In this document: piece by piece, positions 14,801 to 60,473 of the stretch
How positions within the stretch are numbered: the first letter of the stretch is position 1
Layout: every line of letters begins with the position of its first letter
Assembly: GCA_963921275.4 (NCBI GenBank)
Contig: OZ001293.3
Location: 384,001-448,000 of the forward strand
DNA: 64,000 bases
Origin: an uncultured Hormoscilla sp.
GTDB taxonomy: Bacteria > Cyanobacteriota > Cyanobacteriia > Cyanobacteriales > Desertifilaceae
Reading direction: 5' to 3'
Notes under the pieces: model-generated
Told to the model about the DNA's origin: nothing
Databases searched by the model: none
Seen by the model: only the letters and a program-made list of their open reading frames with translations
Program-made: the position numbers and the translations under genes

Positions 14801-16118
14801 CCAAATTATCTGTAGAATAGATGTGCCTGATCCCACTTTTTTGAGGGTTTTCTGAGACTTTAATCGTCACAGGTGAAGCCACAGTTCCGCCGTCAGGAGT
14901 AACCCCAACAAATCCTCCCTGGGAATAGCCAAAATAAATGTCATCTAGATTTTGTGCTAAAGCAAAGACGCGGTATTGTTGCCATAAGTGACGCTCTATA
15001 TCTCTGCCCTCTTGTATATCTAACAAACCGATTCGGATCGCCTCAGCGGTGCTTTGATTGAGTGCAATTGGTTTTGCCAAATAATCAGTCAGGTGTTGCT
15101 CGATGCGAGCCGTTATTTCCCTACGCAACTGATTAGGGGTCGAGCTGGGAATCGCTTCGGAACCCTCCCGTTCGGAACCTAAAGAGCGACTTTCACCGCA
15201 TCCGGCTACTGGGTAGTAGGCCCAAGTCATTGGTAGGTAACTTTTGGATTACTCCCTTTGTCCCTTATCTCATGCAATTTCGCTCCTTTCCTGGTTGGTG
15301 AGTGGCCGGAAAACCTTTAGTATCACCATTATCGCGTCCGTTTTACCAGTAATCTATTCCTCAATCACCGAAGTGACGGGCTTATAACGTATCTAGAGTT
15401 ACTTTCACCTGAGACTTCCTACTATCACCCACCCTCACCGCACGTCGGCGTATCCTAAGCATTACCCCAGGCATTTGCTTCTTGGGGGCAGGCTTGGGCT
15501 CCCACTCGTGGCTTACGCTTCACATCTGACTGGTCCAGTTGGACAGCTCACGAGGGGTTACTTCGTCCCCTGGTCTCCGGAGCGCGATGCCTTTAGGTCC
15601 CTACTCTACCCCGGTAGTTCTTTGAGTACGATGTTAGCCAACAACAAAGACTAACACTAATTACGGTGACTTTTGTCTCCGGCGCATAAAGCCTTATTTC
15701 GCCGGTTTGAGGTAACGAGGCTTCTATAGGTTTGCTTGATCTAACCTTGGACATCATCGAGCGCGGAGTCGCCAAGGCTGCCAGCTATCCTACATTTAAG
15801 TTCTCGCTTAGCACCACGATGATGTTACTTCGCAACACCTCCAACCGGTGTTACCCCCGTACTTGGGGAGGCGGAATTTAACCCCCATGAATACCAGAGT
15901 TCCTAGTTTCCTAGGCTAGCGTTCCGCGTTTGAACAGGTTAGACTAGAACGAATCGCACGGTGGTAACCTCATTGACAGCTTTCTGTCCGTTGCGTAAGG
16001 AAAGATAGCCTGTCAATCCTACCGCTGCGCAGATTTGCAGCACAAAGGGGACGATGAAGACGGTTCGCAGCCCGACAGTTCCAGAAAGTTTGTCAACTAG
16101 ACGGTTGAGAGTTTTCAT
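11891..16118 (-). pseudogene. Cache-HAMP hybrid sensor histidine kinase (HK-REC-HK), intron-interrupted and frameshifted
   Basis: Fragments: TM, Cache (RPWYKAA), HAMP (RSDEVGELA), ANTSHELRT, HATPase, REC, second HK. The C-terminal 576-aa frame is open. Confidence 0.85.
15132..15959 (-). ncRNA. ORF-less group II intron (828 nt) inside the sensor kinase gene
   Basis: 5' GTGCGATTCGTT; D5 gtAGCcggatgcggtgaaagtcgc; 3' ctcgAcccctaat; removal restores the reading frame. Confidence 0.9.
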
Positions 16119-18462: not shown

Positions 18463-19297
<835 letters not shown>

Positions 19298-19897
19298 AAC
19301 CACCGGTGATAACCGAAGGGGGACCACTGGCAAGGCTCCATTAGCCTTGATAACTTTTAGATGATGGTGGTGAAAGCCCACCCCTCCAGGTGCAGGAGTG
19401 ACAGCACTTACCCCACGGTAGCGATGGCATCAATCCGTGAAGCGGGTACGAAAGGCGCCCTGGCTGGTAGCCTAAACCGGTCATCGCCGATTTTTCGCGC
19501 AGCGTGCAAGTAGTCACGGTGAGCGAAAGCAAAGATTTACAGTGTCGTTACGACAAACCAGCGTAATAAGGCTAAACACGCTGGCCCAAAAGGGAAAGGA
19601 TAATGGTCATTGGCGGTTTGAATTCTGACCAATAAGCACCGACAATAAACCCGGCATAAGGAATCCACCTAAAACTACGACCAATCATCTAGAGGAACGA
19701 AGTAAACCAGGTACATACTCTCAACCACCGGTCGATAGGTTGAGCAGCCACCAAAGGCGCAACATCTGCTTACATTCGGCAGGTTATATCTGGGAAAGAT
19801 TTCGCGGAGAAGCTAACGCCTTTCTGTAATGGATGGGATATGCTGACGCCCTCACGGTAACGTCAATTGTAAAGTTGTAAGTAGCAATACATACGTC

Positions 19898-21671
19898 ATG
19901 AGCACGATGTCAAAATCGATGAATGAATGGAAGGATATCCCCTGGCCTCGGCTGGAACGGGTAGTCTTTAAGTTGCAAAAACGAATTTACAGAGCGGCAC
20001 AAGAAGGCAATAAGCAAAAAGTTCGCAGGCTCCAAAGGTTACTGGTAAGCTCCCGGGCTGCCAAATGTCTAGCGGTACGACGGGTTACACAAGATAACCA
20101 GGGAAAGAAGACAGCCGGTGTGGATGGTGTGAAATCACTAACCCCAAAGCAACGCCGAGAACTGGTAGGACAGATTGAAATCTCAAACAAGGCTAAGCCT
20201 ACACGTCGTGTATGGATTCCTAAGCCAGGGAGAGAAGAAAAACGTCCTTTAGGAATACCCACGATGCACGACCGCGCGAATCAAGGGCTCCTCAAGATTG
20301 CGCTTGAACCCGAATGGGAAGCATATATGGAGGGGAACTCATACGGATTCAGACCGGGTCGGGGATGCCACGATGCAATTGCGGCAATATTCAGCAGCAT
20401 TAAACAGAAACCCAAATGGGTATTAGATGCAGATATTGCGAAATGTTTCGACAGGATAGACCACAAAGCGCTAGTCGAAAAATTAAATACTACGTCACCA
20501 ATCCGTAAACAAGTACGGGCATGGTTAAAAGCCGGGGTGATTGACAAGAAGATATGGCACACAACTGAGGCAGGAACGCCACAAGGGGGTGTCATATCCC
20601 CACTGCTAGCCAATATAGCCCTACAGGGGTTAGAGGAAGCAGTAATGGAATTAGCAAAGACACAAAGGGAAAAGCGAAAGCTGACGGTAGTCAGATACGC
20701 AGACGACTTTGTGATCATGCATGAAGACAGGGAGATGATAGACAGAGCGCAAACAGTGGTGGCAGAGTGGCTAAGAAGAATAGGGCTTGAGTTGAAGGCC
20801 CGAAAAGACAAAGATAGCCCACAGGCTAAATGGAGAAAACCCGGGATTCGACTTCCTAGGATTCAACATAAGGCAATATAAAGAGGGAAAATACAGAACC
20901 GGCAAATCAACAAACGGAACACCCCTAGGATTCAAAACCCTAATCAAACCCAGTAATAAGTCCATAGGGAAGCATAAAGAACGGTTATCAGAAATGGTAA
21001 CTAGCCATATAACAGCACCACAAGCGGCCCTAATAAGCAGGCTAAACCCGATAATAAGGGGATGGTCAAACTACTTTAGGACAGTGGTAAGCAAGGAAAT
21101 TTACAGCGATATGGACAACTACCTATGGAACATCCTATGGCAATGGGCCAAAAGGAGGCACCCTAACAAGTCAAGTAACTGGATAACCTATAAATACTGG
21201 TCTGTAAACCAGGATGCTAAATGGCGATTCCGAAGCAAGACAAAAGAGGGTGATATGAAGATACGTAAACACTCCGAAACTGAGATAATCAGACACGTAA
21301 AAGTGAAAGGGACCGCAAGCCCATACGACGGGAACCTCACATATTGGAGCACAAGATTAGGCAAAAGCCCCGAACTGAGTAAAAGGGTAGCAACGCTACT
21401 CAAGCAGCAAAAGGGAAAATGCCAACAGTGCGGACTAACGTTTATGGATAGTGACAAATGGGAAGTTGACCATATCATGCCCCTTTCACTAGGAGGTAAG
21501 GACCGGTATGACAACCTACAGTTGCTACACAAACACTGCCACGACAAAAAGACTGCCAGCGATGGCAGTAGCCGTACCCATGACAAGGGTGGCGTGACCG
21601 AGGAGCAGGATGAGGCGAAAGTCTCATGTCCGGTTTTGAAGACGAGTCGGTCCGGTGACGGACTGGCTTAG
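19898..21671 (+). pseudogene. ltrA: Group II intron reverse transcriptase/maturase with HNH, frameshifted
   Basis: TAGVDG, RPLGIP, PQGG, YADD, HNH (EVDH..DNLQLLHKHCH); extra G at ~20798 (AAG G CCC GAA) breaks ELKPEKT. Confidence 0.9.
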
Positions 21672-21677
21672 TTTAAT

Positions 21678-22444
21678 TAGGTACGGCAACTACCATCGTT
21701 AGCAGTCTTTACGTCGTGGCAGTGTATTGCCACGTTGTGCCGCTCTGTAAATTCGCTTTTGCAGCTTGAAAACCCTCCGTTCTAACTTTCGCCAGGGGAT
21801 GGTCTTCCATTCATACATCGGTTTTGAAACCTTGTTCATAACGTTTGTACTGTTACTTGCAACTTTACCTTTGACATTACCGTGAGAGCGTCAGCGTATC
21901 CTACTCATTACAAATAGGCGTTTGCTTCTCCACTCAATCCTTTTCCGGCTACGACCTGCCTAATGAGAGCAGATGTTACGTCTTTGGTGACTACTCTACC
22001 TATCGACCGGTGATAGAGAGTGCGTAACCGGGTTACTTCGTTCCTACAGATGATTGGTTGTAGCTTTAGATGGATTCCATACGCCGGGTTTATTGTCAGT
22101 GCTTGTTGGTCAGAGATAAACCTGCCAACGACCATTATCCTTTCCCTTTTGGGCCAGTGTCTCAGCCTTATTACACTGGTTCATATTTACGACGCTGCAA
22201 ATCTTTGCTTTATGCTCATCATGGCTACTTGCTTGACGTTGACTGGTTTAGGCTACCGGCCAGTGCGCCTTTTATTCCTGCTTTACAGATTGATGCCATC
22301 GCTACTGTAAGGAATATGCTTTCACTCCTGCACCTGGAGGGGTGGGCTTTCACCACCATCATCTGTAAGTTGTCAGGGCTAATGAAACCCTGCTAGCGGT
22401 CCCCCACCAGTTATCACTGGCGGTTTATGCTAAACGAATCGCAC
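21678..22444 (-). ncRNA. 5' half (D1 to D4) of group II intron X, RT ORF internally deleted
   Basis: 5' GTGCGATTCGTT at 22444; RT start MNKVSKPMYEW...AAQRGN joined directly to HNH-tail sequence; ends abruptly at the copy A 3' end. Confidence 0.88.
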
Positions 22445-22623
22445 TTACCAATATATAATATACCATCAACCCGATGACGGATAGCATACAAACCCGGTCT
22501 AACCATCAGATGGGAAAATTGTTTGGTCAAGGGCCAGCAGTCTTCAAACGGTGTTACATAAAGTATCTCCAGCAGTCTTTCTGCTTCGGCGCGAATTTGG
22601 GAATAGTCCATCTTATCTATCAA
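22445..22623 (-). pseudogene. GIY-YIG nuclease family protein, exon 1
   Basis: PGLYAIRH...ILYIGK, cut by intron X after AA of the Lys codon. Confidence 0.8.
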
Positions 22624-22946
22624 TTATAGTCTACAATTGTCATCGCAGATGCCCTGCATCAGTGAAGATGGTTTTACCATTAATTGAGCTTCGTGGGAAT
22701 GTCCTCAATTTGACAATTCCAAATCTCTCCAACGATCCTCATGTCCGGCGATCGCACCGGCGGATGGGAGGCCATGGATCGCCGTTCTCAAAGCAAACGA
22801 TCGCGCTTCCTGATGATATCATAACTCAGTACCGCCCACCAGAAGCTAAATCTAGGACTCGGTTTGACAATTTGCCTCAGTCCTGTATATAATTTACTAG
22901 GACCGTCGCCGGGGATACAAAATAACCAGTTTACGGAGGCCAAACA

Positions 22947-23699
22947 ATGGGATTAAAGCTAGATAACGTAGTCCCCTGGGGCCGATCGCACTCTGAATAC
23001 CTGAGAATGTTCGACATTACTATACCAGAGTTAGATTTAAAGATCCTTGATTCTGGTGGCGGTCCTGCTAGCTTTAATGCGGAAATGACGCGGCGATGTG
23101 CGAGGGGTAGTGCGAGTAGCGTGCCCCGAGGGCATCGAAAGGGCTACAATAATGTGATTTCCTGCGATCCAGTTTATCAATTCAGCGCTGATGAAATTGC
23201 CCGACGCATTCAAGCAACTTATCCAGTTATTGTCGAGGGAGTAAAGGCAAATCAAGATCAATATGTTTGGCAAGGAGAAATCACCTCTCCCACTCAGCTA
23301 GGACAGGTGAGAATGGCAGCCATGCAGCAGTTTTTGGCTGATTTTACCGAGGGGAAAAAGTCAGGGCGTTATGTGAAAGCTAAATTGCCAGTACTACCTT
23401 TCAATAAAAAAAAATTTGATTTAGCCCTCTGTTCTCATCTATTATTTCTTTATTCCGACCAACTTGATGCAGCATTCCATTTCCATGCTATACTAGAACT
23501 ATGTCGAGTCGCTAGGGCAGTCCGCATCTTCCCCCTGCTGGATCTATCGGGAGAACCTTCTCCACACCTGTCAGGTACTATAATGGAATTAAGACAGCAG
23601 GGTTATCATGTAGAAACCCGGCAGGTGGATTATGAATTTCAGCGCGGCGGCAACCAAATGTTGCGAATTGAGAATGGCGAATGGAAAATGGAAAATTGA
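22947..23699 (+). CDS. SAM-dependent methyltransferase-like protein with a 42-bp in-frame insert
   Basis: ILDSGGGPASF, FDLALCSHLLF, RIFPL, YEFQRGGN motifs. Confidence 0.8.
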   Translation: MGLKLDNVVPWGRSHSEYLRMFDITIPELDLKILDSGGGPASFNAEMTRRCARGSASSVPRGHRKGYNNVISCDPVYQFSADEIARRIQATYPVIVEGVKANQDQYVWQGEITSPTQLGQVRMAAMQQFLADFTEGKKSGRYVKAKLPVLPFNKKKFDLALCSHLLFLYSDQLDAAFHFHAILELCRVARAVRIFPLLDLSGEPSPHLSGTIMELRQQGYHVETRQVDYEFQRGGNQMLRIENGEWKMEN

Positions 23700-23701
23700 G
23701 A

Positions 23702-24100
23702 ATGGCGAATAAACAAATTACTAGGACATTTTCGGGAACGAGTTGGGAGGAAAAAGCGGGTTACTGTCGCGCCCTCAGAGTGGGAAACCAGATTTATGTT
23801 TCCGGGACCGCACCTATCGATCAATCTGGAGGCGTATTCGCCCCCGGAGATGCTTACGCCCAAACTAAATATTGCTTGTCAATTATCCAAAAATCTTTGC
23901 AGGATTTGGGGGCTGACTGTAGCGATGTTATCCGAGTACGCTTGTTTGTGACTGATATTAGTCGCGCCCAAGAGTTTATTCAGGCCCATCGCGAATTCTT
24001 TGCAGAACATCCCCCAACCAGTACAATGGTTGAAGTTAGCGCTTTAGTAGATCCGGCGATGCTGGTTGAGGTGAAAGTAGAAGCAATTTGTTTCTCATAA
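23702..24100 (+). CDS. RidA family protein
   Basis: GYCRALRVG, VSGTA, PTSTMVEVSAL. Confidence 0.88.
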   Translation: MANKQITRTFSGTSWEEKAGYCRALRVGNQIYVSGTAPIDQSGGVFAPGDAYAQTKYCLSIIQKSLQDLGADCSDVIRVRLFVTDISRAQEFIQAHREFFAEHPPTSTMVEVSALVDPAMLVEVKVEAICFS

Positions 24101-24159
24101 TTGCATGACGGAGGTAAGGACTAAAGTCCTTACTACGAACGAATGATAAGGATAAAAAA

Positions 24160-25356
24160 GTGAAATTAGGAGTATTTTGGCGACAGATAGGTCAACCAAT
24201 GGTATATTATCCTCAGGTGGCTAAAGTTACTGGTGGGGTAACTGCTGCCGTGTTTTTCTGTCAACTGTGTCAGAGTCATTCCTCGGGTAATTCTCAAGAA
24301 TGGATATCCATTACTGTCGAGCAAATGGAGGCGGAAACCGGTTTGAATTCTTCGGAACAAGATCTGGCACGCCGCCAACTTAAGGCCCGATCGCTCTTGA
24401 AAGAGAAAATAGTTAGCGGGAAAAGTGGGGCCCTGGAGTTTTGGCCGGACCTGGAGGTCCTAGAAAAAAGATTAGAGGATAATTTGATTACACCAGAGGA
24501 ATCTCAAGCATCTCTAATTCAGGTTCAAGATAAAACTCCCAGAACAATTAAAGAAGATAAATATTTCCCGGTGCGACGTCAAGCTATTGCCGTGCAAGTC
24601 ACTCCGAATTATCAATTTAGCGGTCCCTGGAAGTCTCCTGCTGAATTAGAGGAATTTCAACGGACTTTATTAGAGTATGCTAAGATCCAAGGGTATCCTA
24701 ACCCTTCGGGATGGGTTTTTAAGGTGATCGATGGCATGACTAAAGGGTTATTGTCTCCCTTTTGGGATGAATTTGTCGCCGGAATAGCTTTAGGTGAAAG
24801 TCAGAAAGTTAAGCGGGACTGGGAGATAGAACCTGGTGTTCCTTATCCCGCCTTTGAAGAAGAACGCATTCAATATTACGTTAGCAAAGGAGAACCCCTA
24901 GAAGCAGCAGTCTCTAAAGCCAGTCACGATCTCAGAAACCCCGTTATGGGACAAGATTTGTGGTCCGGGTTCCTCCGCAAGTGCGATCGCATCGCTGAGG
25001 AGGCGTTAGCTGCGAAGAAAATGGGCGTGCAGACCCCCTATCTGCCCTCTTCCTTTACGGAGAGACCGGAAATTACTAAGGAAAGTGTCATGCAGAAGCT
25101 AGCAGCAGTTAATCCGCAATTTTCCCTGGAAGCATCTCCTTCCGACTCCCTGAACGAACTAATTTTAGCAGCGGTGGATAAATCAGCAGAACAGAAAGAA
25201 CAGAAACCAGCATCCGATGTTCCGCCTCTTGCTACTTTGCAGGAGATGTTTAAAACTGCGATCGGGCGATCGCTGGTGAAAAAGCAAATTGCCGAACACC
25301 CGGAATGGGGATATGAAATAGTTGACGGGAACGTGGTAGACTCAATTCCTTTTTAG
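24160..25356 (+). CDS. Hypothetical protein with N-terminal winged-helix/replication-initiator-like region
   Basis: Long open ORF; GGVTAAVFFCQL...MEAETGL..EQDLARRQL resembles phage/plasmid replication HTH domains. Confidence 0.6.
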   Translation: MKLGVFWRQIGQPMVYYPQVAKVTGGVTAAVFFCQLCQSHSSGNSQEWISITVEQMEAETGLNSSEQDLARRQLKARSLLKEKIVSGKSGALEFWPDLEVLEKRLEDNLITPEESQASLIQVQDKTPRTIKEDKYFPVRRQAIAVQVTPNYQFSGPWKSPAELEEFQRTLLEYAKIQGYPNPSGWVFKVIDGMTKGLLSPFWDEFVAGIALGESQKVKRDWEIEPGVPYPAFEEERIQYYVSKGEPLEAAVSKASHDLRNPVMGQDLWSGFLRKCDRIAEEALAAKKMGVQTPYLPSSFTERPEITKESVMQKLAAVNPQFSLEASPSDSLNELILAAVDKSAEQKEQKPASDVPPLATLQEMFKTAIGRSLVKKQIAEHPEWGYEIVDGNVVDSIPF

Positions 25357-25366
25357 AGGGAGAAAC

Positions 25367-25603
25367 ATGAGAAAAGTTAAAGATATTGATGGCTTTAGTT
25401 CCGCCGGACGTCCTCTTCTGTCAGCAAAAGAATGTCAAAAACTGCGTCAGGAGAAAATTCAGCAACAGCAAGAGTCAAACTATCAACTGTTGGCAGAACT
25501 TTGTCGCTTAGGGGAGGAGGACGCTGCCAAGCTACTGACAAACCGCAATTATAGCTGGGGTTATGAAGTAGTTGACGGAGTGGTCAGGGAAAGGTTAGAT
25601 TAA
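25367..25603 (+). CDS. Hypothetical protein
   Basis: RBS GAGGGAG; shares the WGYE(I/V)VDG motif with the upstream gene. Confidence 0.65.
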   Translation: MRKVKDIDGFSSAGRPLLSAKECQKLRQEKIQQQQESNYQLLAELCRLGEEDAAKLLTNRNYSWGYEVVDGVVRERLD

Positions 25604-25805
25604 TTGCAAATTGGGAATTGAGAATGGCGAATTATTTGATGGCAAGTGGGGGCGATGATTGGAAAATTTTTGGCGATCGCATGTGGTTGGTGTACGCAGG
25701 ACATTGGCGTAAGCATGTGGCCGGGGCACAAATCAGTAATATAATAATATGAACCGAAAGATCTCTGATGCCGTGCCCCTTGTATACTAAGATTAGTCTG
25801 GTGGA

Positions 25806-26633
25806 GTGCGATTCGTTCTAGTCTAACGTAGTCAAACACGGAACGCTAGCCTAAGAAATTAGGAACTCTGGTAATCATGGGGGTTCAATTCCCCCTCCCC
25901 AGGTACGGGGGTCGAGGGTACTACCGGTCGGAGGTGCTACGGAGCGACATCGCCGTGGTGCCTCCCGAGGACTTAAATGTAGGATAACTGGCAGCCTAAG
26001 CCGGTGACGCCGCTAGGAAAGATGCTAATGGTTAGAACAAGCGAACCTATGTAAACCTCGTTAACTAGAACCAGCGGAATAAGGCTTATGCGCTTGCCCA
26101 AAAAAAGGGAAATGGTAGTTAGTATTAGCTCTTCTATCTGGCTAATAACGTACTCAAAGAACTCCCGGGGTATAGTAGGAACCTAAAAGCATCGTGAAAT
26201 GATACTAGGGAACGAAGTAACCCATCGTGTGCTGTCTACCGAGACCAGTCAGATGTGAAGCGCAAGCTACGGTGGGAGGGATGGCCCAAGAAGCAAAAGC
26301 CCTAATTAATGCCTGGGATAAGCAAACAGGGGTCGGTGACAGTAGGAAATCTCGGGCTAAAGTAACCCTAATACGCCCCAATACCTAGCATGCGAAGGTG
26401 GGATAACTGGTGAAACGGACTCAGATAAATTGGTAATACTAAAGGTTATCCGGCAGCGCCACTTACCAACCAGGAAAGGGGAGAAATTACATGAGATGAG
26501 GGACAACGGGAGTAATCCCCAGTAATCCTACCAATGACAAGGCCCTACTGCCCAGTAGCCGGGTGCGGTGAAAGTCGCAAGCCCGGTTCCGCTCTTGGAG
26601 GGTTGGGGAGTGATTCCCAGCTCGACCCCGACC
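25806..26633 (+). ncRNA. ORF-less group II intron (828 nt) in the IS110 left end
   Basis: GTGCGATTCGTT; D5 gtAGCcgggtgcggtgaaagtcgc; ctcgAccccgacc; EBS1 TCTATC pairs 6/6 (2 G-U) with GGTGGA. Confidence 0.9.
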
Positions 26634-26851
26634 AGAGCACTCAAACACTCTCTCTACTTCGGTCAGGTGAAGCTGGCGTGCCCCTAAGACACCTTAAGGC
26701 TAAGTCTGTTGTGTAGATTAGCTCCCTGCAGGTGAATCACGACTGGTTTGATCCTGATACTGTCCAGTATCTTAGGCCACCCACGCTTTGTTGAGCCTGC
26801 TAAACCGCGGTTAGTTGCATTGACCAGTCAGCATACAATTTGTATGCTATC
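26634..26851 (+). ncRNA. Putative IS110 bridge RNA
   Basis: CGTGCCCCT (26677-26685) equals the left target flank; TGTAG (26712-26716) is the reverse complement of core plus right flank; CAGTATCT (26765-26772) equals the donor end. Confidence 0.75.
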
Positions 26852-27686
26852 GTGCGATTCGTTCGGACGTAAACCAGTAATGGTGAAAGTCTGATCTGGT
26901 TCAGTAAGCCAGATAACTCTGGTCATCATAGGGGTTAAATTCCCCTCCCTCAGGTACGGGGGTGACACCGGTCGGAGGTGCTGCGGAGTAACATCACCGT
27001 GGTGCTGAGCGAGGACTTAAATGTAGGATAGCTGGCAGCCACAGCTGGCAACTCCGCTTGTTAGAGGCTCATGGTTAGAATAAGCGAATCTCTGTAAGTA
27101 TCGTTAACGCAAACCAGCGAAAGGGCTGTTACGCTGGCCCAAAATGGGAAAGCAGTTAGTATCAATGTTGGTATCTCATTGGTATCGTACTCGAAGAACT
27201 GCCGGTATAGAGGAGAGACCTAAAAGCCTCGTGAAATGATATCAGGGAACGAAGTAACCCCACGTGAGCTGTCCAGTAGGACCAGTGAGATGTGAAGCGC
27301 AAGCCACGTGTGGGAGAGATGGCCCAAGAAGCTAATGCCTAGGGTAATGCCTATGGATATGCAGACGTGGGTCGGTGATGTCAGGAAACTACTGGAATAA
27401 GTAGCCTTAAAACGTCATAGGCCCATTCACAGCGTTAGCTAAAGTGAGTTGAGGAATGTATTACTGGTAAAACGGATATGTAAATGGTGATACTAAAGGT
27501 TTTCCGGCGGCGCCACTCACCAACCAGGAAAGGGGCAAACATGTAAGTAGTAAGGGACAACGGGAGTAATCCAAAAGTTACCTACCATGAAAAAGGGCCT
27601 GGCACCCAGTAGCCGTGTGCGATGAAAGTCGCATGCACGGTTTCGAAAGGGAGGGTTGGTACGCGAGTACCAGCTCGACCCCGGCT
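26852..27686 (+). ncRNA. ORF-less group II intron (~835 nt) in the IS110 left end
   Basis: GTGCGATTCGTT; D5 gtAGCcgtgtgcgatgaaagtcgc; ctcgAccccggct; EBS1 GGTATC pairs 5/6 with GCTATC. Confidence 0.88.
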
Positions 27687-27721
27687 CACTTAAAATTGAG
27701 TTAAAATTGAGGTACAGTGCT

Positions 27722-28162
27722 ATGACACAAACAGTTCTAGGCATCGACAGAGCGCAAAAAGACATTTCATGTCGCTCTGATGCTTGAGAACGGCAAAACT
27801 CTCACCAAAACACTTCTACAACGACGACAAAGGGTTCAGCCAGCTGAGCACCTGGCTAGAGAGACATGAGGTAACGACAGTCCATGCTTGTATGGAAGCC
27901 AGAGCGCATCTATGGCGAAGCATTGGCAGAATATTTGTACTCTGCTGGTCATATTGTTAGTATCGTGAATCCCGTTCGCATTAAAGCTTTTGCGCTCCGA
28001 CATAATTCTTTGCTCAAAGCGTTCAGCGACCGATTGCTGAATCGCGGTAAGGTAAAGATGCAGGTGATTGGAGCGGTGATGCGCAAGTTGTTACATATGG
28101 CTTTTGGAATATTAAAGTCCCAAAAGCCCTTCGATCCGAATTTTTTATCGGCAACCCCTTGA
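27722..28162 (+). pseudogene. IS110 transposase remnant
   Basis: MTQTVLGID, VHACMEA, VSIVNPVRIKAFA joined to C-terminal GKVKMQVIGAVMRKLL; frameshifts and a large central deletion. Confidence 0.85.
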
Positions 28163-28184
28163 CAGTTCGACACAGTATCTACAT

Positions 28185-29270
28185 TTAATTGGCGCTCGCC
28201 ACCCGATGCGAGCGCATCGGGGTCGGGGCACAGATAATATTGGCGATCCCATGTGGCCGGGGCACAGATAACATTGGGGATCGGATCTCTTCCCTGACAT
28301 CTATGGTAGGGGTACGGAAGAAATTTATCAGGATATAAACTAAAAGATATCTATTGCCGTGTCCCAGCCCTAAATTTGCGATCTCCTCCTGACATTTGAT
28401 TGACATTATATTCGCGATCGGGCATCGGGTGGCGAGCGCATCGGGCCGGGGCACGGCGTATTTATCATAATAATATGAACCGAAAGATATCGGATGCCGT
28501 GCCTCTACGGAACATTGGCGATCGGATGCAGACAGAACATTGGCGAGCGCATGTTGTCGGGGCACAGATAATATTGGCGAGCGCGTGAGACCGGGGCACG
28601 GCGTTTTAAACATTTTCATTATTAGGGAAAATTTTCGGATACGCTGGCGCTGTGCTCCTACAGGAAATTGGCGATCTCGCATCAGGGGGCGAGCGCATGT
28701 GTTCGGGGCACAGATAATATTGGCGAGCGCATGTGTTCGGGGCACAGATAATATTGGCGATCTAATTTATTTCCTGACCAGCATTGTAGGGGCATGGCAT
28801 CGATAAATTAGGATAGAAACTGAAAGATATATATCACCGTGCCCCGGCCCCACGAATGAGTGACATTTAATTGGCGATCAGGCATTGAGGGGCCATCGCA
28901 TGTTGTCGGGGTACAGATAATATTGGCCATCGTAAGCTGTGATGCATCTAAATTGCATATTTCCCTATCAGGTTAAATCGTGGCAACCCTGTATACATAA
29001 GCGTTTCCGCCATAATGGCCAACGCATGACTATGCATTTTAAATGCGCGACAGCTTATGTTGTCGGGGCACAGATAATATTGGTGATCGCATGTGGTCGG
29101 TGTACGCAGGACATTGGCGATCGCATGTGGCCGGGGCACTGCGGATTTAATATCATAATATGAACCGATAATCTGCGCTATGCCGTACACCTACAGTTCA
29201 TATGAGATCGCATCCAGACATAATATTGGCGATCGCATATGAACGTTGACATTATATTCGCGATCGCCCC
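28185..29270. repeat. Degenerate REP/HIP1-associated repeat cluster
   Basis: Many variants of ggggcacagataatattggcga(g/t)cgcatg interleaved with ggggcacggc...gccgtgcc hairpins; similar blocks at 25670-25780 and 31890-32280. Confidence 0.75.
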
Positions 29271-47514: not shown

Positions 47515-48349
<835 letters not shown>

Positions 48350-53962: not shown

Positions 53963-56360
53963 ATTAAACTAAGCCAGTCCGTCACCGGACCGACTCGTCT
54001 TCAAAACCGGACATGAGACTTTCGCCTCATCCTGCTCCTCGGTCACGCCACCCTTGTCATGGGTACGGCTACTGCCATCGCTGGCAGTCTTTTTGTCGTG
54101 GCAGTGTTTGTGTAGCAACTGTAGGTTGTCATACCGGTCCTTACCTCCTAGTGAAAGGGGCATGATATGGTCAACTTCCCATTTGTCACTATCCATAAAC
54201 GTTAGTCCGCACTGTTGGCATTTTCCCTTTTGCTGCTTGAGTAGCGTTGCTACCCTTTTACTCAGTTCGGGGCTTTTGCCTAATCTTGTGCTCCAATATG
54301 TGAGGTTCCCGTCGTATGGGCTTGCGGTCCCTTTCACTTTTACGTGTCTGATTATCTCAGTTTCGGAGTGTTTACGTATCTTCATATCACCCTCTTTTGT
54401 CTTGCTTCGGAATCGCCATTTAGCATCCTGGTTTACAGACCAGTATTTATAGGTTATCCAGTTACTTGACTTGTTAGGGTGCCTCCTTTTGGCCCATTGC
54501 CATAGGATGTTCCATAGGTAGTTGTCCATATCGCTGTAAATTTCCTTGCTTACCACTGTCCTAAAGTAGTTTGACCATCCCCTTATTATCGGGTTTAGCC
54601 TGCTTATTAGGGCCGCTTGTGGTGCTGTTATATGGCTAGTTACCATTTCTGATAACCGTTCTTTATGCTTCCCTATGGACTTATTACTGGGTTTGATTAG
54701 GGTTTTGAATCCTAGGGGTGTTCCGTTTGTTGATTTGCCGGTTCTGTATTTTCCCTCTTTATATTGCCTTATGTTGAATCCTAGGAAGTCGAATCCCGGG
54801 TTTTCTCCATTTAGCCTGTGGGCTATCTTTGTCTTTTCGGGCCTTCAACTCAAGCCCTATTCTTCTTAGCCACTCTGCCACCACTGTTTGCGCTCTGTCT
54901 ATCATCTCCCTGTCTTCATGCATGATCACAAAGTCGTCTGCGTATCTGACTACCGTCAGCTTTCGCTTTTCCCTTTGTGTCTTTGCTAATTCCATTACTG
55001 CTTCCTCTAACCCCTGTAGGGCTATATTGGCTAGCAGTGGGGATATGACACCCCCTTGTGGCGTTCCTGCCTCAGTTGTGTGCCATATCTTCTTGTCAAT
55101 CACCCCGGCTTTTAACCATGCCCGTACTTGTTTACGGATTGGTGACGTAGTATTTAATTTTTCGACTAGCGCTTTGTGGTCTATCCTGTCGAAACATTTC
55201 GCAATATCTGCATCTAATACCCATTGGGTTTCTGTTTAATGCTGCTGAATATTGCCGCAATTGCATCGTGGCATCCCCGACCCGGTCTGAATCCGTATGA
55301 GTTCCCCTCCATATATGCTTCCCATTCGGGTTCAAGCGCAATCTTGAGGAGCCCTTGATTCGCGCGGTCGTGCATCGTGGGTATTCCTAAAGGACGTTTT
55401 TCTTCTCTCCCTGGCTTAGGAATCCATACACGACGTGTAGGCTTAGCCTTGTTTGAGATTTCAATCTGTCCTACCAGTTCTCGGCGTTGCTTTGGGGTTA
55501 GTGATTTCACACCATCCACACCGGCTGTCTTCTTTCCCTGGTTATCTTGTGTAACCCGTCGTACCGCTAGACATTTGGCAGCCCGGGAGCTTACCAGTAA
55601 CCTTTGGAGCCTGCGAACTTTTTGCTTATTGCCTTCTTGTGCCGCTCTGTAAATTCGTTTTTGCAACTTAAAGACTACCCGTTCCAGCCGAGGCCAGGGG
55701 ATATCCTTCCATTCATTCATCGATTTTGACATCGTGCTCATGACGTATGTATTGCTACTTACAACTTTACAATTGACGTTACCGTGAGGGCGTCAGCATA
55801 TCCCATCCATTACAGAAAGGCGTTAGCTTCTCCGCGAAATTTTTCCCAGATATAACCTGCCGAATGTAAGCAGATGTTGCGCCTTTGGTGGCTGCTCAAC
55901 CTATCGACCGGTGGTTGAGAGTATGTACCTGGTTTACTTCGTTCCTCTAGATGATTGGTCGTAGTTTTAGGTGGATTCCTTATGCCGGGTTTATTGTCGG
56001 TGCTTATTGGTCGGAAAAGGAACCGCCAATGACCATTATCCTTTCCCTTTTGGGCCAGCGTGTTTAGCCTTATTACGCTGGTTTGTCGTAACGACACTGT
56101 AAATCTTTGCTTTCGCTCACCGTGACTACTTGCACGCTACGCGAAAAATCGGCGATGACCGGTTTAGGCTACCAGCCAGGGCGCCTTTCGTACCCGCTTC
56201 ACGGATTGATGCCATCGCTACCGTGGGGTAAGTGCTGTCACTCCTGCACCTGGAGGGGTGGGCTTTCACCACCATCATCTAAAAGTTATCAAGGCTAATG
56301 GAGCCTTGCCAGTGGTCCCCCTTCGGTTATCACCGGTGGTTTACACTGAACGAGTCGCAC
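53963..56360 (-). mobile_element. Group II intron with RT ORF (copy B), two frameshifts
   Basis: Inverted near-identical copy of copy A without the nested intron; ORF 55741-53969 has the shared +G and an extra 1-nt deletion near 55223. Confidence 0.93.
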
Positions 56361-59540: not shown

Positions 59541-60473
59541 GGTCGGGGTCGAGCTGGGAATCACTCCCCAACCCTCCAAGAGCGGAACCGGACTTGCGAC
59601 TTTCACCGCTGGGGCTTGTCCTTAGGCATATCATCATCAATAATTAGGTCACCCCGTATTCCCCTTACCCTCTGTAATTTTACCCCTTATGGTCAATCCT
59701 ATTGGACCGTTAATGATTTCAGCTCCGGAAGGTATGCGCTGCGCGCACGCTGCGCGATCGCGGAGGGTAGTTCAGCAAACCATTCTAGCCGCTCTTCTCT
59801 AACATTTCCCCATTCTGGCAATTTATCGGGGCTCTGAACTTTACCCGGCTGAGACTCTAGTCCATATTCATACTTTTGGATTTCTCCTAAGTTTTGCGAT
59901 GTGTTAGGGCTACTTTCACCAAAGGCTTCTTACCATATCCGTCCTACGTCTGCATATCCCAGGCATTACCCCAGGCGTTGGCTTCTTAGAACATCCTTCC
60001 TCTTCGCGGCTTGCGCTTTACATCTAACTGGTCCAAATGGGGACAGCTCACGTGAGGTTACTTCGTTCCCTGGTATCATTTCTCGATGCTTGTAGGCCCC
60101 TGCTATACCCCGGGAGTTCTTTGGGTGCGATGCTGGCAATAGATGACTACCAACACTAACTACCATTTTCCCTTTTGGGCCAGCGTATAAGCCTTATTCC
60201 GCTGGTTCTATGTAACGAGGCTTTAACAGGTTCGCTTGTTCTAACCATGAGCATCTTTCCTAGCGGCGTCACTGGGTTAGGCTGCCAGCTATCCTACATT
60301 TAAGTCCTAGCGGAGCACCACGGCGATGTGACCCCGCAGCACTAAGGACCGGTAGTACCCTCGACCCCACACCTGGGGAGAGGGAATTTAACCCCCATGA
60401 TAACCAGAGTTATCCGGCAAATGAAACCAGACCAGACTTCACCGTCGCCAGTTTACGCCTGAACGAATCGCAC
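59541..60473 (-). ncRNA. ORF-less group II intron (933 nt), D5 partly degenerate
   Basis: GTGCGATTCGTT at 60473; aAGCcccagcggtgaaagtcgcaagtccggttc; ctcgAccccgacc. Confidence 0.85.

Follow-up and report, generated by a model that had tools for sequence, protein, structure and literature searches.

Two different group II introns flank a short non-coding piece of an insertion sequence (IS) of the IS110 family in the genome of an uncultured Hormoscilla sp., and the locus raises the question of whether this arrangement is a device that processes a guide RNA or an accident of intron accumulation. The window that was analysed is a stretch of 64,000 nucleotides (G000:C1:384001-448000), and positions given here without a contig are those of the window. 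The initial annotation described a putative bridge RNA bracketed as a 218-nt exon between two self-splicing introns and offered two readings, one in which splicing rebuilds or processes a working guide and the IS ferries the introns to REP sites, and one in which the introns simply accumulate in a safe harbour. The reading favoured here, with a probability of roughly 0.8, is a neutral pile-up of two introns in a dead IS110-family element with no processing device.

The IS spans 25781-28180 and measures 2400 bp with the introns and 737 bp once they are subtracted, the latter value as in the initial annotation. The ends of this IS lineage were set by comparing four copies each from the genomes G327 and G057. 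In these copies the left flank ends in CCCGCCCCT and is followed by TGTAT, and the right end contains TTGACA and closes with GACAGTATCT, followed by AC; the right end GACAGTATCT and the TTGACA motif are kept in the copies of both genomes. In the window the core dinucleotide CT is found at 25779-25780 and at 28179-28180. The left end contains a -10-like TATACT (25783-25788), and the right end features a -35-like TTGACA (28159-28164) and a terminal ACAGTAT (to 28178) that is followed by the core CT. Joining the two IS ends in a circle would, from a reading of the sequence only, place TTGACA 18 nt from TATACT. The available text of Durrant et al. 2024 (PMC11208160) describes a promoter that is restored where the ends meet in the circle, and by analogy the junction of this IS may have the same role. 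A promoter scan of the linear locus returned 4 sites versus 3.4 expected, and the one site located just upstream of intron 2 (26820-26848) is not separable from chance. The coordinates of the features are collected in Table 1.

Table 1. Features of the IS110-family element and its two introns, in window positions, with the evidence used to place each.
Feature	Position	Strand	Basis
REP-like left target; its last two letters are the core CT (25779-25780)	25766..25780	+	copy comparison
IS left end, first 25 nt	25781..25805	+	IS start fixed via copy comparison
Intron 1, ORF-less group II, 828 nt	25806..26633	+	Rfam, empty sites, EBS1 covariation
Putative bridge RNA core, 218 nt	26634..26851	+	guide matches versus shuffles, flank covariation, 13-homologue alignment, stem covariation
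LTG CGTGCCCCT	26677-26685	+	guide match versus shuffles
Candidate RTG (G)TGTAG	26711-26716	+	position and one covarying case
Donor-loop basal stem GACTGGT / ACCAGTC	26741-26747 / 26823-26829	+	covariation in 12/13 homologues
LDG CAGTATCT	26765-26772	+	guide match versus shuffles
Mutated RDG position, CCGCG	26805-26809	+	alignment of 13 homologues
Intron 2, ORF-less group II, 835 nt, singleton lineage	26852..27686	+	Rfam, empty site in paralogue
26-nt leader, intron 2 site to recombinase start codon	27687..27712	+	alignment with relatives' upstream regions
IS110-family recombinase pseudogene	27713..28162	+	tblastn with three intact 323-aa relatives
IS right end	28159..28180	+	sequence reading; G327 and G057 copies
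Right target flank ACATTTAATTGGC, part of REP-like array	28181..28193	+	sequence reading, copy comparison

The target of the IS is recognizable from its other copies. The motif CCGTGCCCCT is located directly before the IS start in 4/4 copies or relics in the genome, the IS family accounts for at least four independent insertions there, and the motif CGTGCCCCTAC has 21 further unoccupied occurrences. The intergenic spacer that contains the repeat array is about 3990 bp long here, versus about 125 bp in the congeners G003, G004, and G005, and this contrast in size identifies the IS-bearing repeat array as lineage-specific filler. HIP1-type GCGATCGC motifs, which also occur in the 64-kb window, point to a cyanobacterial host.

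Both introns are recognized by the Rfam model for domains V-VI (RF00029, gathering score 40) on the + strand, intron 1 at 26554-26632 with 41.9 bits and intron 2 at 27608-27685 with 47.4 bits; four further RF00029 matches are found elsewhere in the window. Both introns start with GTGCG and feature the domain V AGC triad and the domain VI bulged A. The longest ORF inside either intron is 82 aa, and none of the seven intron ORFs of 41-82 aa matches Pfam at E≤0.01. The intron borders are exact to the base because intron-free paralogous sites exist. For intron 2 the empty site is a 99.5%-identical paralogue (G000:C1:4100471-4100074) that is contiguous across 26851/27687, and for intron 1 the empty sites are two diverged relics (C1:4140016-4139890 and 4123732-4123678) that are contiguous across 25805/26634. 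The borders set by the empty sites agree to the base with those of the two different ORF-less sense introns that had been annotated initially.

The two introns belong to different lineages, each about 75% identical to the family of the other. Intron 1 is present elsewhere as three full copies that are >99% identical, as one internally deleted copy, and as fragments in the paralogue. The four copies outside the paralogue have unrelated flanks ending in GATAGA, GATTGA, GGTAGG, and GAAAGA, each followed by A, a pattern that would fit retrotransposition into look-alike sites. Intron 1 was mobile recently. For intron 2 no other copy that is >90% identical was found in the assembly, and its nearest relative is 86% identical.

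The EBS1 loop was located by covariation over an alignment of 333 of this genome's introns, those with lengths of 750-1000 nt, in which the loop and the last six exon bases covary family by family. The loop AGACTC is found with exon ends resembling GAGTCT (139 copies), TGCACT with AGTGCA or AGTGTA (70 copies), and TGCCTC with GAGGCA or GAGGTA (16 copies). At this loop the EBS1-IBS1 pairing that the initial annotation had given as 6/6 and 5/6 was reproduced: the EBS1 of intron 1, TCTATC (26133-26138), forms 6/6 pairs with IBS1 GGTGGA (25800-25805), two of which are G-U, and the EBS1 of intron 2, GGTATC (27170-27175), forms 5/6 pairs with the exon end GCTATC. No consistent assignment of EBS2-IBS2 was found across the intron families. 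A candidate IBS2 (ATTAG) for intron 1 recurs in 3/5 family members, and intron 2 has no convincing IBS2.

The 218-nt piece between the introns carries guides that can be read against the flanks and ends of the IS. The LTG CGTGCCCCT (exon positions 44-52) is identical to the left flank plus core over 9/9 nt, which is equalled by 7/2000 shuffles, and the LDG CAGTATCT (exon positions 132-139) is identical to the right end plus core over 8/8 nt, which is equalled by 37/2000 shuffles; the LDG is invariant across 13/13 homologues. The candidate RTG TGTAG (26712-26716) pairs with the right flank CTACA over 5 nt, a match that is not significant alone (1669/2000 shuffles equal it). The guides also covary with the flanks. 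In G327 the sequence CCCGCCCCT appears in both the RNA and the left flank, and CGTAG faces the right flank CTACG; G057 has CCCGCCCCT or CCTGCCCCT. The RDG is the exception. It reads ACAAG, the complement of the left-end start CTTGT, in 10/13 homologues, and CCGCG in the window and its duplicate, with 2/5 positions matching.

The structure of the RNA was approached in several ways. The 7-bp stem that closes the donor module is fully paired in 12/13 distinct homologues, in four compensating versions (GACTGGT/ACCAGTC, GATAGAC/GTCTATC, GACAGGC/GCCTGTC, and GACAGAC/GTCTGTC). Pairing in the two apical stems, AGAC/GTCT and TAGGC/GCCTG, reaches 95-96%, with hardly any variation in sequence. RNAalifold returned a partial structure of the bridge RNA with almost no covariation, and a structure drawn by hand is 81.7% paired, with helix 3 misaligned. 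The single-sequence fold of the 218-nt piece is no better than that of shuffles (z = -0.75). An Rfam scan of 25400-28400 at E≤1 found no family matching the 218-nt piece; apart from the two introns, the scan listed a 17-nt tmRNA fragment and two plastid domain-V families that score below threshold.

The layout resembles that of IS621/IS110, as far as the accessible parts of Durrant et al. 2024 (PMC11208160) describe it. A non-coding RNA is located in the left end upstream of a recombinase with DEDD and Transposase_20 domains, the 5' side of the first loop corresponds to the left target plus core (9 nt here), the 5' side of the second loop corresponds to the right end plus core (8 nt here), and a short candidate guide on the 3' side would pair with the right target. 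A core CT and a REP-like target are likewise shared, and a -35/-10 pair would form only across the circle junction. In contrast to IS621, the recombinase at this locus has suffered a deletion and frameshifts, the RDG is mutated, and the left end is interrupted by two group II introns; the putative RNA matches no Rfam family. Because of the left-target and donor guide matches and the covariation with the flanks, the 218-nt piece is accepted as the putative core of a real IS110-type bridge RNA, in which one defining feature, the RDG, fails. It is proposed that this bridge RNA would once have guided the IS into a REP-like repeat at CGTGCCCCT|CT|ACA.

Both introns interrupt the IS left end. The intron 1 site is 25 nt into the IS left end, inside the 5' arm (GTGGA) of a 5' stem-loop predicted by RNAfold (GTGGA-A-GAG with CTC-TCTAC); this hairpin is predicted in 4/7 related left ends. 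Intron 2 enters downstream of the donor-module stem, 26 nt before the start codon of the recombinase gene, so that the target- and donor-binding modules are both located within one exon. The initial annotation regarded the bridge RNA as left intact by the introns, and this holds for the two guide modules, which are whole in the 218-nt piece. It does not hold for the RNA as a whole, because intron 1 splits the predicted 5' stem-loop, and the RDG is mutated; a complete RNA would exist only after splicing of intron 1. Both introns look intact, so the RNA could still be transcribed and spliced. Ordinary splicing ligates the middle exon to its neighbours, and a free 218-nt species is therefore not expected. 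In contigs from four sequencing runs of unknown kind the joints 26851>27687, 25805>26647, and 25805>26702 are present; all of them are DNA forms with a counterpart among the paralogues of this genome and carry no information on splicing or expression.

The recombinase gene has decayed, as the initial annotation had stated in reporting a deleted transposase. By tblastn with the 323-aa relatives the remnant comprises two blocks. Residues ~1-90 are spread over two frames and contain frameshifts and an in-frame stop, and residues 268-323 follow directly; about 177 residues (~91-267) are deleted. The closest intact relative (locus L018) matches DEDD_Tnp_IS110 (PF01548) at 1e-24 and Transposase_20 (PF02371) at 1.5e-24, and the window remnant alone gives a weak PF01548 match (E 0.039). 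The assembly, which is 96.7% complete, was searched with both Pfam domains and with the N-terminus of the relative, and an intact IS110 recombinase was not found. PF01548 has one match in the genome, with two stops, among five candidates. For PF02371 there are four, and the open frames that hold them are 79-264 aa long. The best genomic recombinase locus lacks its N-terminus and is frameshifted, and the N-terminus of the relative detects only broken pieces. The IS is dead.

The anatomy, the intron borders, the guide matches, the decay, the duplication, and the intron density are established from the sequence. They are best explained by a pile-up of introns, whose neutral and functionless character we infer, together with the order of events. 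An IS110-family IS would have inserted at a REP-like repeat, guided by its own bridge RNA, and would then have lost the middle of its recombinase gene, with no working recombinase of the family left in the genome. The genome carries a swarm of roughly 400 ORF-less introns, which dozens of intron-encoded proteins would mobilise in trans, and two unrelated members of this swarm would have reverse-spliced into the non-coding left end of the dead element, at landing sites that pair with the EBS1 loops by happenstance. Intron 1 would have come first, before the segmental duplication of the locus, and intron 2 would have come later, or would subsequently have been lost from the duplicate. The insertions would persist because nothing here is under selection, and the bridge RNA core would be bracketed because matching sites happened to lie there. 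The safe-harbour pile-up of the initial annotation is thus the reading that fared well, in keeping with the dead IS, the lineage-specific repeat array, the number of introns, and the other close intron pairs around unrelated sequences.

The intron background of this genome determines how surprising such a pair is. Intron-end profiles detected 489 5' ends and 492 3' ends, and 403 of the 5' ends are paired with a 3' end within 5 kb, of which 56 overlap another pairing, either because introns are nested or because a 5' fragment is involved. Two lengths predominate, 871 nt with 123 copies and 835 nt with 64. GIIM maturase has 75 matches in the genome, many in long open frames, a number that makes trans mobilisation and splicing of ORF-less introns plausible by analogy with Thermosynechococcus. 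Two hits in one pre-specified 737-bp segment from about 400 randomly placed introns have a chance of about 1e-3. Several two-hit cases are nevertheless expected somewhere in this genome, and more still if insertions into dead DNA are tolerated. Other close intron pairs bracket coding repeats of the LRR and pentapeptide types, and also unrelated DNA. The low chance for a pre-chosen segment suggests some bias toward such DNA through tolerance, sequence, or accessibility, and a bias toward this kind of DNA is probably present. By chance alone, two introns would both lie in sense to the IS in 1 of 4 cases, as these do.

An unlikely alternative, though the one that survives best, is that the IS left end or the REP arrays are a preferred landing zone, so that the pair would be non-random and still functionless for the IS. 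Resemblance to a homing site, single-stranded or structured DNA, or a replication-strand bias could be the cause. Close pairs are up to about twice as frequent as expected under uniform placement, with 19 non-nested neighbour gaps <600 nt versus about 13.6 expected and 11 gaps ≤218 nt versus about 5 expected. The two introns of 15/19 close pairs are on the same strand, an excess that hints at a non-random process, and the full EBS1 pairing and the recurring candidate IBS2 of intron 1 would also suit a preferred site. The same intron 1 site is unoccupied in two relics, however, and intron 2, with its incomplete EBS1 pairing and no convincing IBS2, looks ectopic; the lack of a consistent EBS2 assignment also argues against targeting.

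The second copy of the locus bears on whether the introns travelled with the IS. This copy is an inverted duplication (≥8 kb) of window 19298-27866 at C1:4100074-4108914, in which the segments 19298-22462, 22456-25067, 26164-26438, 26434-26851, and 27687-27866 recur at 99.4-100% identity. The gene that flanks the IS on its left in the window is found just upstream of the truncated intron 1 of the duplicate, which is missing 25068-26163 and intron 2. The intron 1 of the duplicate has also acquired an insert of 1012 bp. A reading of this insert as part of the intron, in domain IV, was ruled out, since it is an IS in its own right, present in many copies (112 HSPs in the genome). The second copy thus reads as a segmental duplicate with the same left flank and not as a product of transposition. 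The initial annotation had suggested searching the genome for copies of the composite with different flanks, and the only other copy found is this duplicate, so that the composite is in effect single-copy.

The duplicate also presents a puzzle regarding intron 2. Intron 2 is missing from the 99.5%-identical duplicate, yet the assembly holds no donor that is >86% identical to it. With the donor missing and the duplicate so similar, a simple order of events with a recent insertion fits poorly. The donor may have been lost or unassembled, intron 2 may have been lost precisely from the duplicate, or gene conversion may have kept the duplicates alike.

A very unlikely alternative is that intron 1 entered the IS when it was active, spread with it, and left the decayed traces that are seen now, a history of the kind proposed for Thermosynechococcus introns located in insertion sequences. 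Insertion into another mobile element is a named route of intron proliferation in the available text of Mohr et al. 2010 (PMC2882425), the IS family has inserted repeatedly in this genome, and intron 1 is older than the duplication of the locus. These points are outweighed by the other copies. In the two older relics the target site GGTGGA|AGAG is unchanged and holds no intron. Three other independent left-end copies or relics are known in total (4139976, 4123696, and 155323) and none of them carries intron 1 (0/3); two, the relics just named, keep the exact target site, and the third contains only the first 20 nt of the left end and stops upstream of that site. No intron was found to recur at one position in IS copies from different sites of this genome, the four other copies of intron 1 are in unrelated flanks, and no intron-bearing IS copy was found among the homologues recovered from four congeners.

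The weakest explanation, in which splicing rebuilds or gates a working bridge RNA and the IS carries introns to REP sites with a recombinase supplied in trans, could draw on the sense orientation, EBS1-IBS1 pairing, and intact domains V-VI of both introns, on the two loop modules in one exon, on a split 5' stem-loop that only splicing could restore, and on the unoccupied CGTGCCCCTAC sites and many maturases in the genome, and it is the least probable of all, given that no intact IS110 recombinase was found by either Pfam domain or by the relative's N-terminus, the RDG position is mutated, the sole other copy is a segmental duplicate, the relic sites are empty, and ordinary splicing frees no 218-nt species. 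The corresponding proposals of the initial annotation, a working guide rebuilt or processed by splicing and an IS that ferries introns to REP sites, are not supported, given the same recombinase, duplicate, and relic evidence. It is also very unlikely that the IS110 lineage, before its decay, transposed with intron 1 in the 5' stem-loop of its bridge RNA, with a guide complete only after splicing. If true, a self-splicing retroelement would have gated the guide of an RNA-guided transposon, and the introns would in exchange have been carried to REP sites.

Group II introns in mobile DNA are familiar. Dai and Zimmerly are said to have reported in 2002 that bacterial group II introns are often located in IS elements, plasmids, and intergenic DNA, where they do little harm; compared with that pattern, this locus has two different introns in one small IS relic. 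The TeI3/TeI4 family of Thermosynechococcus elongatus reportedly numbers 28 copies. The available parts of Mohr et al. 2010 (PMC2882425) describe these TeI3/TeI4 introns as often ORF-less, with a few intron-encoded proteins acting in trans and with some introns located in insertion sequences or in other introns. The window shares with them a cyanobacterial swarm of related, largely ORF-less introns, some of them in IS. Unlike TeI3/TeI4, the present genome has about 400 introns, the IS is of the RNA-guided IS110 type and is hit in its guide-RNA region, and no sign was found here of an IS spreading introns. Among the papers listed as naming both group II introns and bridge RNA, judged by title and abstract, no report of an intron inside a bridge RNA gene was found.

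Group II introns in IS and bridge RNAs are both known, and because their combination is found here in a dead element, it reveals no new mechanism. The mechanistic weight is small, as the locus adds one case to the intron pile-ups in dead mobile DNA that have been described before in cyanobacteria. The locus is modestly informative in other respects. It documents a putative cyanobacterial lineage of IS110 bridge RNAs in which, for several genomes, a direct comparison of guides with REP-like targets is possible. The duplicate without intron 2 also allows a dated comparison of the states before and after an intron was inserted or lost. The background is more striking than the composite: the intron count of this genome is roughly four times the maximum of 101 group II introns per genome given in the accessible text of a 2022 survey (PMC8919778).

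The source genome assembly (G000, GCA_963921275.4) carries a very large set of related ORF-less group II introns, of which 403 paired ends were recovered across the whole genome with intron-end profiles. The introns include size classes of 871 nt (n = 123) and 835 nt (n = 64), and 75 maturase-domain matches were found in the same genome. The largest number of group II introns in any prokaryote genome is put at 101 in a 2022 survey (PMC8919778). First-look counts gave 449 candidate introns in G000 versus 193, 176, 163, and 8 in the compared genomes, which suggests that the intron expansion is common to the whole genus and that it is greatest in G000. Examples from the window are listed in the table together with two copies of an intron of a different kind, which features a maturase ORF. 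Domain V of both maturase-bearing copies matches the plastid ndhA/ndhB-2 family, with a score barely over the threshold (54.4 vs 53 bits).

Group II introns in the window, in addition to those flanking the bridge RNA
Feature	Window position	Strand	GIIM match
ORF-less group II intron	15133-15959	-	
ORF-less group II intron	18463-19296	+	
Intron with maturase ORF, copy 1	19298-21677	+	20970-21200
ORF-less group II intron	47515-48348	+	
Intron with maturase ORF, copy 2	53963-56360	-	54440-54670
ORF-less group II intron	59542-60473	-	

Introns of G000 are also found in direct contact with one another. At three places on contig C1 (G000:C1:5447656-5450268, 824934-826675, and 524521-526114), two or three introns follow one another head to tail with zero spacing, and many intron 5' fragments lie 238 nt upstream of complete 835-nt copies, forming "1073-nt" units (n = 8). 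These arrangements may represent tandem or nested (twintron-like) insertions. At G000:C1:3351297-3353182 a pair of 835-nt introns, separated by 216 nt, occupies consecutive LRR-type coding repeat units, each of which seems to have been hit at an identical target site.

The segment at 19298-27866 of the window recurs in inverted orientation at G000:C1:4097695-4108914, a segmental duplication that covers at least 8 kb with 99.4-100% identity. The duplicate was rearranged after copying: the equivalent of window 25068-26163 is deleted, intron 1 holds an inserted 1012-bp IS, and position 27866 is joined to an inverted copy of 19298-21678. Intron 2 (window 26852-27686) is missing from this 99.5%-identical duplicate, and its closest relatives in the assembly show at most 86% identity; either its donor is lost or missing from the assembly, or the duplicate may once have held intron 2 and undergone a precise loss of it. 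The 1012-bp IS is bounded by terminal inverted repeats and encodes a DDE-like product of ~280 aa. It occurs at G000:C1:4100672-4101683 and ~100 further places in G000 (112 HSPs, at least 25 full-length copies, and at least 99.3% identity among the matches listed), and it is a second highly active mobile element of this genome.

Upstream of the IS110 relic, window 24160-25603 encodes two ORFs of 398 aa and 78 aa that share a C-terminal W-G-Y-E-(I/V)-V-D-G motif. A Pfam search of the two ORFs gave no match, and both are kept in three congeners with ~92% nucleotide identity.

The bridge RNA homologues at L009, L011, and L014 (loci in the congeners G003, G005, and G004, respectively) form a sister lineage in which every core-adjacent position is changed together. 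In the homologue alignment this lineage reads CGTGCCCCG, CAGTATCGG, and ACAGCGG at these positions, joint differences that may mean its core dinucleotide has changed from CT to CG.
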